Source: Bdellovibrionota bacterium (GTDB lineage: Bacteria; Bdellovibrionota_C; UBA2361; JAAYZI01). Taken from it: a DNA stretch of 64,000 nt. The notes beneath the pieces are model-generated. The model was not told where the DNA came from, ran no database searches, and saw only the letters and a list, made by a program, of their open reading frames with translations. The position numbers and the translations under genes are program-made. Shown piece after piece: positions 4,392 to 15,617 of this stretch. The stretch spans positions 179,619 to 243,618 of the forward strand of contig JBMNIF010000001.1 in the NCBI GenBank assembly GCA_050950765.1. The letters run 5' to 3'. How positions within the stretch are numbered: position 1 is the first letter of the stretch; every line of letters begins with the position of its first letter.

Positions 4392-4448
4392 CTTGTCCCT
4401 GGTGCCACCCACCAGCGCTAAGCCCTTGTCACTGGTGCCACCCACCAG
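4392..4448 (+). repeat. Two GGTGCCACCC cores downstream of the RAYT-like gene
   Basis: CTTGTCcCTGGTGCCACCCACCAG twice (cores at 4401 and 4434, 33 bp apart). Confidence 0.9.
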
Positions 4449-4660: not shown

Positions 4661-5629
4661 TCAGGTCGCCACCCCGCAAAGCCTACCTACAATAGGCATA
4701 CTCGGACGAAATGCCCCATAAACAAACTTGGCTGAAATATCACCTTGCTTCCACTTCTTCCAAGCCTTTCTACACTCTTCACAAAAAGCCTTATATTCTG
4801 CTATCGCCTTTATCCGTAACTCCTTAATCCAACAAATTAAATACGGCGTACGTGTCTTCTTCTTAGGTACATACGCAATATTTATCGATTGCTGCTGCAC
4901 TTTACGCATCCCCATAAAATGCCCCTTCCTTTCAAGTGCAATCTCTTCTTCCCTTTTTGAAATCTCTGTCATTATTGTTTTAAAGATCTCTTCAGACGTA
5001 AGGTTTTTTGATTCTTCAAAACAATTCTTCCAAGCATCAGGGGTAATCTTAAGCTCATGACAAGTGTGCGGAAACATATTAAGCATTTTTAATAAAATAG
5101 CATCGCTTATTTTATGAAGTCTCTGCGGTAACTTACGTAAATTAGTAGAAGAGGTATACTTACCCTGCACTGTTAAAGAACCTGATTTATACATTCTAAA
5201 ACTACTACACCCTTCCCAATCAGCAGCGTGTGCAACGAGTCCTGCTTTTACAGGATTTATATAAATATAGACTATCTTATCGATAACATCATTATGAGTT
5301 ACCAAACGTTGCTCCTTAAAACGTCCATCCCAAACGTTTCTCCTATATTGCGGTGTTAGTTTCTTAATAGCACGTGCAACTGCACTTTCCATCTCTCCCA
5401 TAAATGCAGAGATGTGCTTTCCTTCACCAACTAATATCATGTGAAAGTGGTTACTCATCCAATTAAAATGAGCAATTCTAACACGATGGTGCTCTTGGCA
5501 ACGTGCCATAATCCCTAACAGGATCCATTTCATAAAAAGGCGTGCTAGAAATGGCAAGCCAGATAATGTTCTATTGGTGACATGTACCACCATTTTATTA
5601 GGATTTCTCCTATCTCTACGATTTCTCAT
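4661..5629 (-). CDS. REP-associated tyrosine transposase-like HUH (Y1) endonuclease with long C-terminal extension
   Basis: VHVTNRT, HUH motif MSNHFHMIL, VWDGRFK, catalytic-Tyr motif YIYINPVKAGLV and DWEGCSSF match the RAYT/TnpA(REP) Y1 pattern; flanked by repeat arrays. Confidence 0.85.
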   Translation of the reverse strand: MRNRRDRRNPNKMVVHVTNRTLSGLPFLARLFMKWILLGIMARCQEHHRVRIAHFNWMSNHFHMILVGEGKHISAFMGEMESAVARAIKKLTPQYRRNVWDGRFKEQRLVTHNDVIDKIVYIYINPVKAGLVAHAADWEGCSSFRMYKSGSLTVQGKYTSSTNLRKLPQRLHKISDAILLKMLNMFPHTCHELKITPDAWKNCFEESKNLTSEEIFKTIMTEISKREEEIALERKGHFMGMRKVQQQSINIAYVPKKKTRTPYLICWIKELRIKAIAEYKAFCEECRKAWKKWKQGDISAKFVYGAFRPSMPIVGRLCGVAT

Positions 5630-6265: not shown

Positions 6266-7342
6266 TTAATAGATAACAGGTGTTGTGATTCTCGGGGGGT
6301 TATTGCCGTATCTTGTGATGGTTGCTTGCATAAAGTAAGAAGCTTGGTTCGGATATGCAACGCGGGCGATAACTTCATAGGTGTTATTGCTCGTGCTGTT
6401 TGTAGTAATGATGCTCTTTAGTTCATTCTGTTGTTCTTTTGCAACTTCTGTAAGGTTGAAGAATTCATTTATATCATTAAATTTTCCGTTTTCACGGCTA
6501 TTTCGTTCTTCTATAATCCTTTCAGCGGTGTCTTCGTCAATTTTATCGTCTAGCGCCATCAGAATTTCTTTTGGGGCAATGTTAACGTCGATTTTGCCAC
6601 TTCCTCTTGTTGTAATAAATGGCACAAGTAGGCGTAAGCGTTGTGGAGTAAAGCCTGGAATGTTTGAAAGCTCTTCACGTTCAATAATACTGGCGTAATC
6701 GTTTTTAAATTCACTACCCTCAGGCAAGGTATCTTCACATCCTTTTACGATGACGCCGTTTATAGTATCACTGAAAGATGTTTTATCTATATCCAAGTAA
6801 TCTATTAAATTCCCCAACATCTCTTCTGGAGTGAAAACTTTATTCCCACATAAACCAGAAGGATTTTTTTCTTCTATGGCACCGAGATCAAGAATTGTGA
6901 AAAGTCGTAAACATACCTCTCGTAACTTCGTAATTGTGTTGGAAACGGTCGTATTATTTTCAACTCTATGAATTGGAAAACTACCCGTTATTGGTGTAAT
7001 TTGAAGCGCTATTCTGGCACCTTCATTAGGATCCACTCCAAAAAATCCTAAAAATTCAGGAGGGATTTCTAGCCCGTCTTTAAACGGCTCCCAAGCTTCT
7101 GTATTGATAATATCTTGACTATTTGTGTTTTTGCCAACCTGAATCAAGCTAGCAGCATAGTTTGTCAGAGATTTGAGAATGTATTCCGCTTTTAGACGAT
7201 TTTTAATTACACCTATTGATTCAGCTTGTAAAAATGTTGAATGCGCCAAGCTTGTCACAAGAATTGTGGCAAAAGCTAAAAACATAATGACCAGCAGTAA
7301 GACAACAGCGTTTTCTCCCTTTTGTTGATTGCGGTGTGTCAT
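6266..7342 (-). CDS. gspK: Type II secretion system minor pseudopilin GspK-like protein
   Basis: N-terminal pilin-like TM (QKGENAVVLLLVIMFLAFATILV), NLIDYLDID, EELSNIPGFT, GKIDVNIAPKEILMAL HhH-like motifs typical of T2SSK. Confidence 0.75.
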   Translation of the reverse strand: MTHRNQQKGENAVVLLLVIMFLAFATILVTSLAHSTFLQAESIGVIKNRLKAEYILKSLTNYAASLIQVGKNTNSQDIINTEAWEPFKDGLEIPPEFLGFFGVDPNEGARIALQITPITGSFPIHRVENNTTVSNTITKLREVCLRLFTILDLGAIEEKNPSGLCGNKVFTPEEMLGNLIDYLDIDKTSFSDTINGVIVKGCEDTLPEGSEFKNDYASIIEREELSNIPGFTPQRLRLLVPFITTRGSGKIDVNIAPKEILMALDDKIDEDTAERIIEERNSRENGKFNDINEFFNLTEVAKEQQNELKSIITTNSTSNNTYEVIARVAYPNQASYFMQATITRYGNNPPRITTPVIY

Positions 7343-7554
7343 TCTTTCCTTATCTCCTTAATCGAGATGATAGATATTTTTACAAAGAATAACCACTCCT
7401 TTCATCTCCTGACTTCTGAGTTTTTTGTCTAAAATTATTTTTTTAAGGAGTTAACTTATTAAAAAATAATGAGAAGTTTTGAAAAACATTAAAAATGCCT
7501 AAAATATTTTCATATAATGCTATCCACCAGTAGGCTAAAAGCAGGTGCCACCCA

Positions 7555-8697
7555 TCAAATTTGATCTATAAAGGAGCAAATGGTTTCAACATCTTGGTTG
7601 TCTGTATAATAATGCGGTGAAAATCTAAACACAAACTTACTTCCATTATCTGGGAAAAAAATCGGACAATCCCAATCACATACTAAAGAAACAACAATAC
7701 TTTCTGTTTCCAATGCTGTTTTTATTTCCACTTCTTTTGAAGGGTCTTTTAAGTAAAATGACGCAATTCCAGACCTTGATTTTTCTTTACCGAATAGATA
7801 AATATTCTGATTCCTCATAATTGCATCTCGTATTTTGTTGGCCTTTCGTTCAATTTCTAGCGAGGCTTTCTCCACTCCATATTCTAAATATTCATTGATT
7901 GCATTTCCTAATCCTAATAATGAAGCAATACTTTTTTCCCAAAGTTCAAACTGTTTTGCATCATCACGAACTTTCACTCCTTTAACATCGCCATTACTAT
8001 CAAAAATTAGATCAGCAGATGCTAAATCAATCTGTGGTGTATAAATATTTGCACCATCCTTGACATATAGAATTCCTGTCCCTCGTGGTCCGCGTAGCCA
8101 TTTTCTCCCAGCTGCAACATATGCATCACAGTTTATTTCTTTCATATTCGCGACTATTTGCCCAACAGCTTGGCAACCATCAACAATATAGGTAGCGCCA
8201 TATTTTCTAGCCATTTTCCCCATTTCTACCACTGGATTAACGATTGATCCTTGTGCTGCAACATGGCTAACAGCTAAAATTGTTCCTCCTCCTCGCAATG
8301 CACTTTCTAAGTTTTCTAATGAAAAATCCCCATTCGGCTTGCACGGAATCACATTCACTGAGCAGCCAGTTTTTTTTGCAATATCAAATATTGTTAATAA
8401 GTTTGTACCATACTCACTTGACAACGTAACAATCTTATCGCATGCACTTATTTTTATTCCATACATGATTAGATTCCAGCCACGACTTGCGCTATCAACA
8501 AATGCTATTTCACTTTTATTATCTGCATTAAGCATTTTGGCTGATAATTCGTAAAATTTGTTTACATCTTCCTGCTTATCAATTGCAGCTTTATATGCGC
8601 CAATCTTCATTTCAAGTTTCATGTGGTCCACAACAGTATTAAATGTTCCATTACTCATTAATCCTGCTCCGGCATTATCAAAATACAGTGTTTTCAT
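7555..8697 (-). CDS. PLP-dependent aminotransferase class V (cysteine desulfurase/EgtE-like)
   Basis: LYFDNAGAG, IVDGCQAVGQ, AGRKWLRGPRGTGILY with PLP lysine, RFSPHYY. Confidence 0.85.
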   Translation of the reverse strand: MKTLYFDNAGAGLMSNGTFNTVVDHMKLEMKIGAYKAAIDKQEDVNKFYELSAKMLNADNKSEIAFVDSASRGWNLIMYGIKISACDKIVTLSSEYGTNLLTIFDIAKKTGCSVNVIPCKPNGDFSLENLESALRGGGTILAVSHVAAQGSIVNPVVEMGKMARKYGATYIVDGCQAVGQIVANMKEINCDAYVAAGRKWLRGPRGTGILYVKDGANIYTPQIDLASADLIFDSNGDVKGVKVRDDAKQFELWEKSIASLLGLGNAINEYLEYGVEKASLEIERKANKIRDAIMRNQNIYLFGKEKSRSGIASFYLKDPSKEVEIKTALETESIVVSLVCDWDCPIFFPDNGSKFVFRFSPHYYTDNQDVETICSFIDQI

Positions 8698-8708
8698 TAT
8701 TTATCCTC

Positions 8709-8927
8709 TCAACTTTCTGCAACAAATTTTGCAATAGCAACCCCCAGTTCTCTCAAATTCCAAACTGTCGGATTTGAATCATTATCGGTTATCATGCCTC
8801 GCAATTCTAAATCCCTCACAGTGTTACGCAGCTCAATCTCTGGCACAGCAACCATTTCCGAAATCTTTATCGCCGAAAGAGAGTCGTTGTTCTTATATAT
8901 TGCGGATAGAATTTGAAGTTGTATAAA
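8709..8927 (-). pseudogene. 5'-truncated ORF remnant, winged-helix-like C-terminus, cut at the IS1634 end
   Basis: Open frame FIQLQILSAIYKNNDSLSAIKISEMVAVPEIELRNTVRDLELRGMITDNDSNPTVWNLRELGVAIAKFVAES* ends 11 nt before the aminotransferase ATG and begins directly at the IS terminus. Confidence 0.55.
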
Positions 8928-8953
8928 GTCCTAAATTCCCGTTTTTTTATAGT

Positions 8954-9681
8954 CTACACCTTAGTATTTAATATTTTATCGACAAAAATCTTCTGGTCAA
9001 TTTCTAATGCTTCTAAAATATCTTTTTGTTTTTTTGTTAATGGCTGTAGTAGCATGCTCAGATTTTCATTATCTATGCGTCTTATCATTTTAAGCGTTTC
9101 TAAAACTCTCTGAATGGTTTTTTCTACTTTTTTGTTATTATTATTTATAGTTCTTTGTAGGTCTGACCACATAATTAAGCTAAGAAAGGAAACGAAGCTT
9201 TTGCCGTCAGTAGTTTTTTCATTATGTGTTAGCATACGGTCATTATCCAATTCATTTTTTAAATTATCGAAAGCTTTCTCAATAAAGTCTCGTCGTGAAT
9301 AGATATGAAGTGCTTCTTGTGGTGTCATTGTTGAGTGGTTACTCAAAAAAGCAAAAACTCCTAGCATAGATAAGATATCGGTAATTTTTTCATGATCTCT
9401 TTCAAAACTTTCTAACTGCACTTCTTTCTTAGTTTTTATTTTGTAGTATTTAGAGTAGCGACTCATACTCATAGGCTTTTTCATTTCTTTTAGTTCATCT
9501 TCTAATCTGTCAATATGAGAGTAAAGAGTGCTCTCTTCCTCAGATGCACTTTTTGTATTTAAGTAAACGTAGAGAGAAAATTTTTCTCCATTTATCACAA
9601 TATCTTTTCTTACCCCATAACAATTTGTCCCAGATATGTGATTCCTAGAAGAGCGAAGAGTAACAGATACTTCCCTCATAG
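8954..9681 (-). pseudogene. C-terminal half of IS1634 transposase (split by IS3)
   Basis: YSRRDFIEKAFDNLKNEL (IS4-superfamily Y-R-E-K-like signature), GKSFVSFLSL, LTKKQKDIL as in the copy at 47.5 kb. Confidence 0.85.
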
Positions 9682-9730
9682 TGTTCTGCCTCTGATGGAA
9701 ATGGACTTTTGTCATGCCACAAAACCCTAG

Positions 9731-10693
9731 TTAACACACCTGAGCTTGTTGTTCAATGTTGTAGTTAGTAAGAGAGGGGTACCCCTCTCTTACTAACTTG
9801 CGATGTGCTCTAGCAGCTTCCAATTTGCTGTCTCGAGCTCTAAATATCTCCTCTTGCTTGTTATTCAATCTATCATTTGGTGTTATATAACCTAGCGCAC
9901 AATGTAACCGCTGATTGTTATATTCTTCGACAAACTTACTCACTATAGTTTTCGCATCATCAAGTGATACTGGAGTGTTAGGTCGTATCGCTTCTACTTT
10001 TAATGTCCCATTAAATCTCTCCATCTTACCGTTCGATTGTGGATAGAACGGTGATGTCTTGACGTGAGTCATACCAGATATCTTTATAAAATTCTTAAAC
10101 TCTTTTGAAATATAGGCTGAACCGTTATCTGAAATAATTCGCGGTCTTGCGTCTGGAAAACTTTCTCTAGCCTTTTGTAATACTACTTCAATATCTATTT
10201 CTTTCATCGATTCTCTAATGTCCCATGCAACTAAATACCGACTACATCCATCCAAAACTCCAATAAAATAGTAAAATGTGCCACAAATATTGATATATGA
10301 AACATCCGTATGCCAATGTTCATGCGGGTTAAGTGGTTGTTCAAATCCTGTCCCTTTCTTGCTTTTTAAACCATTCCAGCAACGCATTAAGCCAGCACTT
10401 TTCAATACTCTATAGGTCGTCGCAGGGGATACTGCCACAACATCTGCGTCAAGCATCATGTATGTTAATGCTCGATAACCTACTCTTGAGTGCTCTAAAT
10501 AATACTTAATAATAGCCTCCCTTTCACTGGGTAATAGCCAGTAATCTCTCGGAATTAGCCCGTTATGAAAGTTCTCTTTACCGTAATGTTTTTCCCAAGC
10601 ATAGTACTTGCTCCGTGTTATCCCTAACCTCTTTATAAACATCTCCCGCTTCATTTCTGATTTCTCTTGCCATTCATGTACAAAATCTATCAC
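9731..10693 (-). CDS. IS3-family OrfB, rve integrase-core DDE transposase (expressed as OrfAB fusion)
   Basis: WHTDVSYI, IISDNGSAY, PQSNGKMERFNGTLK, YNNQRLHCALGYITP. Confidence 0.92.
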   Translation of the reverse strand: MIDFVHEWQEKSEMKREMFIKRLGITRSKYYAWEKHYGKENFHNGLIPRDYWLLPSEREAIIKYYLEHSRVGYRALTYMMLDADVVAVSPATTYRVLKSAGLMRCWNGLKSKKGTGFEQPLNPHEHWHTDVSYINICGTFYYFIGVLDGCSRYLVAWDIRESMKEIDIEVVLQKARESFPDARPRIISDNGSAYISKEFKNFIKISGMTHVKTSPFYPQSNGKMERFNGTLKVEAIRPNTPVSLDDAKTIVSKFVEEYNNQRLHCALGYITPNDRLNNKQEEIFRARDSKLEAARAHRKLVREGYPSLTNYNIEQQAQVC

Positions 10694-10728
10694 CTCATCT
10701 CGTATTTGTGGCTCAACCCAACGCTTCG

Positions 10729-11034
10729 TTAAAGCTCCCCAAGCTTTTTTTTTAAATCTATATGAAGCCCCAAAAGCTCCGCTAGCGCAGAATCCTTCTT
10801 CGTTAGCTTCTTCTCCAAAATATCTATCCGTTCAGCTTGCTTCTTTTCTTCTTTCCTACCATTTTTATTCCGCTCAAAAATTTGGATAGCTCCCTCAAAT
10901 AATAGCTTCTGCCATTCATAAAATGTACTAATGTGTACGCCGTATTTATCGCATAAACTCGATAACGGCTTATTTCCTAATAAATGCTCCTTCAGTATCT
11001 TAACCTTATCTTCTGCACTAAAATGTTTTCCCAT
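10729..11034 (-). CDS. IS3-family OrfA (HTH)
   Basis: FSAEDKVKILKEHL...SSLCDKYGVHISTFYEWQK HTH followed by coiled coil. Confidence 0.9.
   Translation of the reverse strand: MGKHFSAEDKVKILKEHLLGNKPLSSLCDKYGVHISTFYEWQKLLFEGAIQIFERNKNGRKEEKKQAERIDILEKKLTKKDSALAELLGLHIDLKKKLGEL
10744..10753 (-). other. Programmed -1 frameshift slippery site (A9G, contains A-AAA-AAG)
   Basis: Minus strand TTA AAA AAA AAG CTT at the end of orfA; the -1 frame continues KAWGALTKRWVEPQIRDEVIDF into orfB. Confidence 0.8.
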
Positions 11035-11121
11035 TATTCACCCCATTAGTTAATATCACTCAGGCTATTATAGTAGCTTTTTTCAGCACCTCAAATGTCC
11101 ATTTCACGCTGAACCAGCACA

Positions 11122-12014
11122 ATAGTATCGTTGTAATTTTTCTGAGATTTAGGAACAGCTACGAGAAATTCTATTTGCTCTTTTTTTATATATTCTAAAT
11201 TTTCTTTTGTAATAAAACCTCTATCCAGAACATAAAATATATCATCAATACCTAAGTTTTTAGAGTATTCCATCATTGTTGTAAGAAAAACTTTATCAAC
11301 AACACTTCCACTGTAAAGAAAAAAACTTATTGGTAAATTGCTATCGGTAGCGTATAAAAGCCCGACATTTAGTTGTGGTAAATATTCTTTGTCTCTATTG
11401 TATCCATTCTCGGCAAGTGGCAAGTCTGCATAAGTAGAAAGGCTCGTAACATCATAAGCTACAGTCTCATTGTTTTTCATAGCATGGTTTTTCCACACAG
11501 AAAAAAACTTCATTTGATCTTGTTTGGTAATCGATGAAAAAAGCTCACTTGTCTTTTGCGAGGATAGAGATATGTTTTTAGGGGTAAGAGTATTTTGCAA
11601 AAAATTATCTATATTCATCATTACATTGCCTTCGCAAGCCATGTATAACGCAGTATAAAAGATATCTTCGTATTTATCGGGAAAGATTGTTTTTAAGCAT
11701 TTTAATAACCCTATAGCCTTAGCTCTCATTTTTAATGCGACTACGTGACCTGCGTCCCAAACAAAGCGAGAAGAAGCTAGATCAATAACGTCAGATGGCA
11801 TTGGATAATATTTTTTAAAGTTCTCATTAGGAATCATTCTTCCTTGTCTATCAGGGTCTATCTTTCCCACAATCACTTCATCACAAGTAGGTGTGCCGTT
11901 CTTATTACGACGATGACCAAGTACGTGATACACATACTTTACGTTTCCTTTGCTATCTTTTTTATACGAAATCTTTTTTTCTGGAATTGGAATTGAAATA
12001 TTTATTAAAGCCAT
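11122..12014 (-). pseudogene. N-terminal half of IS1634 transposase
   Basis: VAYDVTSLSTY (D1), NGYNRDKEYLPQLNVG, YVLDRGFIT (D2); joins in frame to 8954-9677 once IS3 and one TSD are removed. Confidence 0.88.
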
Positions 12015-12399
12015 TTTGTCTCCTATTTTTTACTGTCCCGTAGACTACGGAAACATGTCTACAGAACAAAAAATGTCAATGGTTTTTTAAAACTTTCATA
12101 AAAACTTAATTAAATAAATATGTTGGAGGAAATATAATATTAGAAAATCTAAATATGAAATTAAATTATTGATATGGACTACATAAAAAACGGGAATTTA
12201 GGTCGTTATTGTGGACGAAAAATTTTTTAGGTGCTTCAAGTGCGAAGTCGGGAAAAGTAGGTGCCACCCATCACCTAGAAGCAAGGTTAAAAATATAAAA
12301 AAAGGGCAGCACGTATTTTTTGTTTACGTACCGCCCTCTACATTCTATCACATAATTATATCTGCAAAGGTAATAAAAGCTCAATAAAACAGGGGTGTT

Positions 12400-12732
12400 T
12401 TAGCAGAAGGTATAATCTTCTTCCTCTTGGAAATCTGAATTAGCTGAAAGAGAACTCAAGATAGAACGTGCATCGTCACGAATCAGGGAAGAGAGGCTGT
12501 TAATCAGAGAAACATGTCTATTAACTTCGTCCCACTCCTGTCTGTTGATGTGCACGCACAGTTCGCCTGCCAAATTGCGCTGCTTTTGTAAGATCTCATC
12601 ATAAGAGTTTAACCGTTCTATTACTGCTAAAGCAGGATTCCCATTCTTTAGCAAAGTTGTTTTTGCACCGTTAATAGCGCTTTCTAATTCGGTAAGGGAT
12701 TGAAATAATCTGTCTATAATATTTTTTTGCAT
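12400..12732 (-). CDS. Hypothetical helical/coiled-coil protein
   Basis: 110-aa ORF with amphipathic heptad pattern and acidic C-terminus; no recognised motif. Confidence 0.65.
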   Translation of the reverse strand: MQKNIIDRLFQSLTELESAINGAKTTLLKNGNPALAVIERLNSYDEILQKQRNLAGELCVHINRQEWDEVNRHVSLINSLSSLIRDDARSILSSLSANSDFQEEEDYTFC

Positions 12733-15456: not shown

Positions 15457-15617
15457 TGAAGGGCGGCACTTTTTACCTTCGTAAAAATCTAGCTAATTCG
15501 CTTTGCAGTTGCACCCCTTTTAACTGTTCTTAGAGGGTGGTGTTTCTACCTCCGTTAAAATCTAACCAATTCGTTTTTTAGTTGTAGCCCCTCAATCGTC
15601 ATTGGTGGGTGGCACCA
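15457..15617 (+). repeat. Degenerate core/module-A repeat cluster between methyltransferase and GT4
   Basis: GAAGGGCGGCAC, GAGGGTGGTG and TGGTGGGTGGCACCA (core 15607) separated by module-A-like spacers. Confidence 0.85.

Follow-up and report, generated by a model that had tools for sequence, protein, structure and literature searches.

Repeats around a foreign aminotransferase gene in a Bdellovibrionota genome predate the gene and probably derive from an insertion-sequence duplication

Does a pair of identical short repeats around foreign DNA mark the site at which that DNA was integrated? The question is raised by a 64,000-nucleotide (nt) stretch of contig JBMNIF010000001.1 (positions 179,619 to 243,618) from a Bdellovibrionota bacterium, hereafter the window. 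In it, a class-V aminotransferase gene, a truncated winged helix-turn-helix (wHTH) gene and two nested insertion sequences (ISs), IS-A and IS-B, lie between two copies of the 15-mer AGGTGCCACCCATCA (7543-7557 and 12259-12273, both on the plus strand). The original prediction likened this arrangement to attL/attR-type capture of foreign DNA at the 10-nt core GGTGCCACCC within the 15-mer. Our analysis retained one part of that idea, namely that the segment is accessory and foreign and that its left boundary is exact at 7557|7558, and discarded the other, the reading of the repeat pair as attL and attR. We consider it probable (roughly 0.7) that the 15-mers are the remains of the target-site duplication of a third element, IS-C, at one solo repeat unit of the type associated with repetitive extragenic palindromic (REP) sequences and REP-associated tyrosine transposases (RAYTs); this duplication measures 27 bp where best preserved and 21 bp at the left copy of the window. 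The locus is thus most likely an IS-scarred remnant of an acquired gene cluster inside an older IS1634-family duplication, that is, debris of common mobile elements rather than a new route of gene capture.

Strain-level comparison revealed a two-allele polymorphism with exact breakpoints. The locus was covered at about 99% identity by 14 public metagenome runs, nine of which (X1, X2, X3, X6, X7, X9, X10, X13 and X20) carried the arrangement of the window. In the other five, which stem from three studies (X15-X19), both flanks were present and the depth was zero across the aminotransferase gene, bearing out the claim that the island is accessory. Contigs from X15-X19 track the window from the gspK-like gene on its left side to exactly position 7557 and then continue with GTTAGACCTGACTCC... 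One variant contig (L037), in which the gspK-like gene is 98.97% identical to the window at the nt level, joins 7557 to 12203, skipping 4645 letters of the window with 476 letters between. The strain-variable DNA is hence bounded on the left by 7557|7558, where the left 15-mer ends, and on the right by 12202|12203, which is the end of IS-A and lies 50 bp before the 27-nt right repeat and 56 bp before its 15-mer. The features of the locus are as follows, in window coordinates:

6266-7342, minus strand: gspK-like type II secretion gene (Pfam T2SSK), the conserved left flank in all alleles
7537-7557, plus strand: left direct-repeat copy, of which 21 nt are kept (AAAAGCAGGTGCCACCCATCA), including the 15-mer at 7543-7557
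7555-8697, minus strand: intact gene for a class-V, pyridoxal phosphate (PLP)-dependent aminotransferase, cysteine-desulfurase-like, 380 amino acids (aa) (Pfam Aminotran_5, E 2e-44)
8709-8927, minus strand: wHTH gene remnant, the C-terminal 72 codons plus stop, cut by IS-A (from aa alignment to a Clostridia protein)
8930-12202, minus strand: IS-A, IS1634 family, CCTAAATT...AATTTAGG, transposase split by IS-B (NCBIfam NF033559, above cut-off for both halves)
9682-11121, minus strand: IS-B, IS3 family, 1440 bp, inside IS-A, with the 4-bp duplication ATAG (Pfam rve and HTH_Tnp_1, NCBIfam transpos_IS3)
12203-12252, plus strand: right end of IS-C, 50 bp, collinear with L037; inverted terminal repeat GTGCGAAGTCGGG at 12240-12252
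12253-12279, plus strand: right direct-repeat copy, full 27 nt (AAAAGTAGGTGCCACCCATCACCTAGA), including the 15-mer at 12259-12273; repeat family D1
12298-12335, minus strand: intrinsic-terminator-like hairpin and U-run of the 110-aa gene (RNA fold -27.5 kcal/mol, z = -5.4)
12400-12732, minus strand: 110-aa gene (open reading frame, ORF), the conserved right flank, in both alleles

The island-free allele L037 keeps both repeats 546 bp apart, and here they are 27 nt long with 23 of 27 positions identical (85%; 72-98 and 618-644). They adjoin, with zero gap, the inverted termini of the IS-C insert at 99 and 617, so that the layout reads [TCTAGGTGATGGGTGGCACCTACTTTT][CCCGACTTCGCAC ... GTGCGGAGTCAGG][TCTAACTGATGGATGGCACCTGCTTTT]. 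Seen from the side of the 110-aa gene, the same contig reads ...CTTGCT [TCTAGG TGATGGGTGGCACCT ACTTTT] [CCCGACTTCGCAC ... 74-aa ORF ... GTGCGGAGTCAGG] [TCTAAC TGATGGATGGCACCT GCTTTT] AGCC... gspK. The inverted termini of the insert are 13 nt long and agree at 11 of 13 positions (CCTGACTCCGCAC vs CCCGACTTCGCAC); of these, the window retains the right one (12240-12252), where direct reading of GTGCGAAGTCGGG against the other terminus CCTGACTCCGCAC likewise gives 11 of 13. Window positions 12203-12252 are collinear with L037 99-147 (97.5%), and at the left copy the final 6 nt of the variant-allele 27-nt repeat are replaced in the window by the end of the aminotransferase gene. This succession of direct repeat, inverted repeat, inverted repeat and direct repeat (DR-IR...IR-DR) is the signature of an IS plus its target-site duplication.

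Since the repeats are present without the island, the pair is older than the aminotransferase and does not depend on it. This finding, together with a right breakpoint at 12202|12203 and the lack of a recombinase, speaks against attL/attR capture. Searches with Pfam and NCBIfam models detected only IS1634- and IS3-family DDE transposases inside the segment and no integrase or other site-specific recombinase, in line with the content that had been described (aminotransferase, truncated wHTH gene, nested ISs, no integrase). The closest further candidate for a recombinase, a RAYT-like gene, is 2 kb outside the segment. An empty site with a single copy of the 15-mer, proposed as a check of the capture idea, was found neither in the 14 metagenome runs nor in a genome_contigs pattern scan of GTDB genomes nor in Joint Genome Institute (JGI) metagenome contigs, collections from which near-identical records may be missing; island-free strains carry both copies instead. 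One JGI match (L036) was set aside as an unrelated high-GC chance match and not an empty site. The nearest comparison genome belonged to another genus of the same family.

The core alone is uninformative, because GGTGCCACCC is extremely common, occurring 64 times in the window and 967 times genome-wide. The 15-mer, by comparison, occurs exactly twice in the whole genome (2,644,825 bp in 5 contigs), as the original prediction required. Its rarity lies in the flanks: an A precedes the core in 17 of the 967 cases and ATCA follows it in 8, so that under independence about 0.14 cores would be expected to have both, and the two observed are the only ones. The notion that these flanks are unusual was therefore correct, and the combination would be confined to this pair because a single unit was duplicated. 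Towards the left the identity covers 21 nt with a single mismatch, AAAAG[C/T]AGGTGCCACCCATCA (AAAAGC vs AAAAGT); the mismatch is common to both alleles and therefore predates their split. As had also been noted, the left 15-mer overlaps the aminotransferase stop codon, whose TGA (7557-7555, minus strand) consists of the first three 15-mer bases on that strand. The two copies are not, as had been assumed, the only solo cores outside arrays: the window holds a third at 15607-15616, and 35 exist genome-wide. The prefix AAAAGCA followed by the core occurs at three further sites on the same contig. Outside the window, a solo core at C2:878323 has the right flank of the right repeat copy (GGTGCCACCCTCCACCTAGAAGC vs GGTGCCACCCATCACCTAGAAGC), and because this flank is shared, CCTAGAAGC belongs to a module of the repeat family rather than to unique DNA.

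The core family is of the REP/RAYT type, being a short, abundant intergenic core that also brackets a RAYT-like gene. The gene in question encodes a 322-aa protein (4661-5629, about 2 kb from the locus) whose best NCBIfam match is REP_Tyr_transpos, REP-associated tyrosine transposase (67.4 bits, under the cut-off of 80), and cores lie on both sides of it (4401-4443, and from 5780 onward). It is likely that this RAYT-like gene drives the 967-copy family.

What kind of element is IS-C? The L037 insert contains a 74-aa ORF that aligns to the N-terminus of an IS1634-family transposase annotated by the Prokaryotic Genome Annotation Pipeline (PGAP; 39% over 51 aa, E 2e-4, tblastn). The fragment also matches four loci in metagenome-assembled genomes (MAGs) of Bacteroidota at 41-49% aa identity, and it has no Pfam or NCBIfam match. 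The putative terminus of IS-C is CCYGACTYCGCAC. An assignment to the IS1634 family would be compatible with a long duplication, given that duplications of 8-514 bp have been described for IS1634 and IS1549, the usual length in the family being 5-6 bp (PMC2266710). A paralog of the IS-C right end (77%) is found on contig C5, where about 150 nt of it lie between 66-nt direct repeats (C5:49470-49700, outside the window; G[A/G]GATATCCYTAAAAATTATGC...CCCTTAAGTA). We considered this locus as a second case of long duplication; it has one IS end only and 11-12 unmatched bases, and was not used as support.

The aminotransferase gene is horizontally acquired and foreign. The suggested inspection of its best matches yielded full-length relatives with 63-65% aa identity, all from MAGs or isolates of Clostridia (Lachnoclostridium, Eubacterium, Acutalibacter, Catenibacillus). 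Those genomes carry it in an operon of four conserved genes, which looks like an uncharacterised small-molecule pathway and has the order wHTH protein (215-216 aa), aminotransferase, 348-aa protein and 634-aa DIT1_PvcA/GNAT protein (L026 1980-6725; L029 7348-12103); the 216-aa wHTH protein is TrmB-like and the 348-aa protein has no Pfam match. The wHTH remnant of the window aligns to residues 143-211 of this 216-aa protein (59% aa identity, E 1e-27), which in Clostridia is encoded directly upstream of the aminotransferase. As only these residues are covered, the window lacks about 140 codons of the wHTH gene and all that preceded them. The downstream genes of the cluster are absent as well.

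Among 40 order-level relatives, a close copy of the aminotransferase gene was present in only one, a Bdellovibrionota MAG of a different family (G008) whose gspK is 26% identical to that of the window. This copy (L025, G008:C12, 8739-9205) has been severed at codon 222, shares a reading frame with the truncated IS1634-like transposase to which it is fused (L025 7987-9205), and is interrupted by an internal TAG. A sister assembly of the G008 lineage (L042) has an intact aminotransferase gene at 191-1333, adjoining secG, that shares 97.2% nt identity with the gene of the window (dS, the synonymous divergence, about 0.08); an IS end, ...GGAATTTAGG, lies 5 nt before its ATG (L042 1-190). The two lineages were found together in digester or bioreactor runs (X1, X4, X5, X6). 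Taken together, the sequence comparisons point to a very recent movement of the gene between two Bdellovibrionota lineages, or from a common donor. The locus would then record a very recent transfer between two Bdellovibrionota families that share anaerobic digesters, the deeper relatives being Clostridia from other habitats. Because selection on the gene is moderate (ratio of nonsynonymous to synonymous divergence, dN/dS, 0.2-0.5), the orphan enzyme may still be functional.

Comparison of three sequences defined the point at which the gene was joined. The window reads ...CAAATT TGATGG GTGGCACCT, the other lineage (G008/L042) reads ...CAAATT TGATGG AG(A/G)GA, with L042 continuing past TGATGG as AGGGAGAGTGTCC..., and the island-free allele reads ...TCTAAC TGATGG ATGGCACCT. 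The aminotransferase joint hence lies within the left repeat copy, 6 bp from its inner edge, with TGATGG as a 6-bp overlap. Provided that the other lineage keeps the donor sequence, the junction would most likely be a product of microhomology-mediated illegitimate recombination. This proviso is the weakest link of the explanation: in a search for the island-free allele of the other lineage, coverage was too low to show whether TGATGG is the exact boundary there as well. The junction could also have stemmed from a double-strand break precisely at the end of IS-C; this idea was dropped, as the 27-nt repeat places the junction 6 nt outside the terminus.

The right side of the island bears the scar of IS-A. 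Five other genomic copies of IS-A are each flanked by a perfect 7-bp target duplication. The copy in the window has none (flanks ATAAAGT and TCGTTAT), and its flanks were therefore not originally adjacent. From the missing 7-bp duplication and the reduction of the wHTH gene to the equivalent of residues 143-211 it follows that DNA was deleted beside IS-A. Joining the IS-A flanks opens an 88-codon frame that continues the wHTH remnant; we regard this in-frame continuation as a coincidence, since the Clostridia homologues measure 215-216 aa and the remnant matches residues 143-211 only. IS-B has four other genomic copies, and a form of IS-A without it (joint 9677 to 11122) was seen in all runs. 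The other copies of both elements lie kilobases away from any core.

From these scars we infer the following order of events. One solo repeat unit, AAAAGCAGGTGCCACCCATCACCTAGA, would have lain between gspK and the 110-aa gene, immediately past the terminator of the latter, and IS-C would have inserted into it, generating a 27-bp duplication whose two copies then drifted apart slightly. In one sublineage a foreign cluster comprising the wHTH gene, the class-V aminotransferase gene and probably more may have been joined at TGATGG, 6 bp inside the left copy. IS-A would have inserted 50 bp from the right terminus of IS-C, and an IS-A-adjacent deletion would have removed all other IS-C sequence along with the upstream end of the acquired cluster, as far as the middle of the wHTH gene, leaving IS-A without a duplication. 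IS-B presumably inserted into IS-A thereafter.

Several observations weigh against this explanation. No single uninterrupted unit was found in the 14 runs or the pattern scan of GTDB genomes, so the duplication is deduced from geometry. The 27-nt copies disagree at 4 positions, a high number against a strain divergence of about 1%, and a length of 27 bp contrasts with the 5-6 bp usual for the family and the 7 bp made by IS-A. The family call for IS-C comes from a 74-aa fragment whose E-values are modest (2e-4 to 4e-13); no full-length IS-C was found, and the four relative loci hold fragments or end at contig ends, so that the termini are unconfirmed. Finally, the aminotransferase gene ends at the same TGATGG in two unrelated contexts, which a random illegitimate junction does not predict unless the donor sequence was preserved.

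The last point lends some appeal to core-directed capture, in which the core would be a cleavage or recombination site, for instance of the RAYT-like tyrosine transposase at 4661-5629, and the space between cores a slot for cassettes; the acquired DNA, and perhaps IS-C too, would have entered at the core or next to it. The variable DNA starts exactly 4 nt beyond a core, only about 2% of random genome positions fall within 30 bp of one, and the RAYT-like gene and core arrays are 2 kb away. We nevertheless judge such capture unlikely. The core pair exists without the island, and its repeats adjoin the inverted termini of IS-C as expected for a duplication made by a transposase. The right breakpoint is the end of IS-A and not a core, no recombinase is encoded in the segment, the aminotransferase copy of the other lineage has no adjoining core, and other copies of IS-A and IS-B lie far from cores. 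In a related and decidedly doubtful version, the solo unit would be a hot spot of DNA breakage, nicked by a RAYT-like enzyme at ...CCCATCA|, and thereby the cause of both the IS-C insertion and the foreign junction. If this were true, REP-like cores would act in this lineage as landing pads for acquired genes.

We give similarly little credence to an ISEcp1-like transposition unit of the IS1634 family, in which an IS moved the aminotransferase gene by using a surrogate end just past the stop codon. Elements of this family lie upstream and co-oriented in the window, G008 and L042, so that two unrelated genomes share the same 3' boundary together with such an element; in L042 the IS end ...GGAATTTAGG is 5 nt from the ATG, the last bases of the aminotransferase gene (TTTATAGATCAAATTTGATGG) loosely resemble the IS end TTTATAGGAATTTAGG, and IS-A lacks a duplication of its own. 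A unit mobilised in this way should, however, be flanked by a duplication, and none surrounds 7558-12202 (CCCATCA vs TCGTTAT). The relationship between the ISs of the two lineages is remote (roughly 40% aa identity, estimated by eye and not computed), and their spacing from the gene is not the same (232 bp vs 5 bp). The likeness of the surrogate end requires two indels, and the wHTH remnant shows that the cluster was invaded by IS-A, not carried by it. That two independent members of the repeat family merely share a rare flank variant beside an IS cluster is highly improbable: 967 cores, 35 solos, the recurrent AAAAGCA prefix and the CCTAGAAGC flank at C2:878323 leave room for chance, but against about 0.14 expected cores with both flanks the two found are neighbours, and in the variant allele their identity reaches 27 nt and stops precisely where the IS-C termini begin.

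The duplication by IS-C remains our preferred explanation. Insertions concentrate in the stretch that separates gspK from the 110-aa gene. Some strains carry a multicopy element about 75 nt upstream of gspK (at about 7415; L041 1-110 / L043 1-91), which has at least five copies on contig C2, and in some, a sequence absent from the present genome cuts the wHTH remnant at 8788 (L041 1-110 / L043 1-91). Variant contigs from X15, X17 and X19 branch at 12305 and 12321, 32 and 48 nt beyond the right-hand repeat and within the terminator hairpin, into sequences absent from the genome; these branches could be further strain variants or effects of the palindrome on assembly. The hairpin itself was missed by a consensus terminator scan and recognised by direct folding. 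The adjoining 110-aa gene has no Pfam or NCBIfam family match.

The locus carries a caution: in a repeat-dense genome, identical repeats around foreign DNA can mimic an integration site. Here, strain-level metagenomes showed the pair to be older than the foreign gene and consistent with an IS duplication, and the locus is likely a further case of the unusually long target duplications of the IS1634 family.

Four known systems invite comparison. With IS1634 and IS1549 the locus shares a putative fragment of a family DDE transposase between the repeats, inverted termini that begin with C, direct repeats adjoining both termini and a length of 27 bp that falls within the described 8-514 bp (PMC2266710). 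It differs in that IS-C is decayed, its frame ending after 74 codons, that the duplication is 85% identical, that the target is a REP-like unit, and that the sister element IS-A makes 7-bp duplications in the same genome. The target, one of 967 short intergenic repeats that bracket a RAYT-like gene, recalls the arrays of REP or bacterial interspersed mosaic elements (BIMEs) with their RAYTs ('REPtron') and the TIRYT arrays; unlike in those, the two copies are solo, outside arrays and paired by an IS, and the RAYT-like protein scores below the cut-off of 80. An attL/attR island would likewise present foreign DNA between direct repeats and an exact left junction, whereas the present locus has no integrase and has repeats without an island, and its variable DNA stops on the right at an IS end, 50 bp before the repeat. 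The closest likeness on the right side is to IS-mediated adjacent deletion, with an IS lacking its duplication beside a truncated gene while other copies have perfect duplications; here such a deletion is read from the scar that it would have left.

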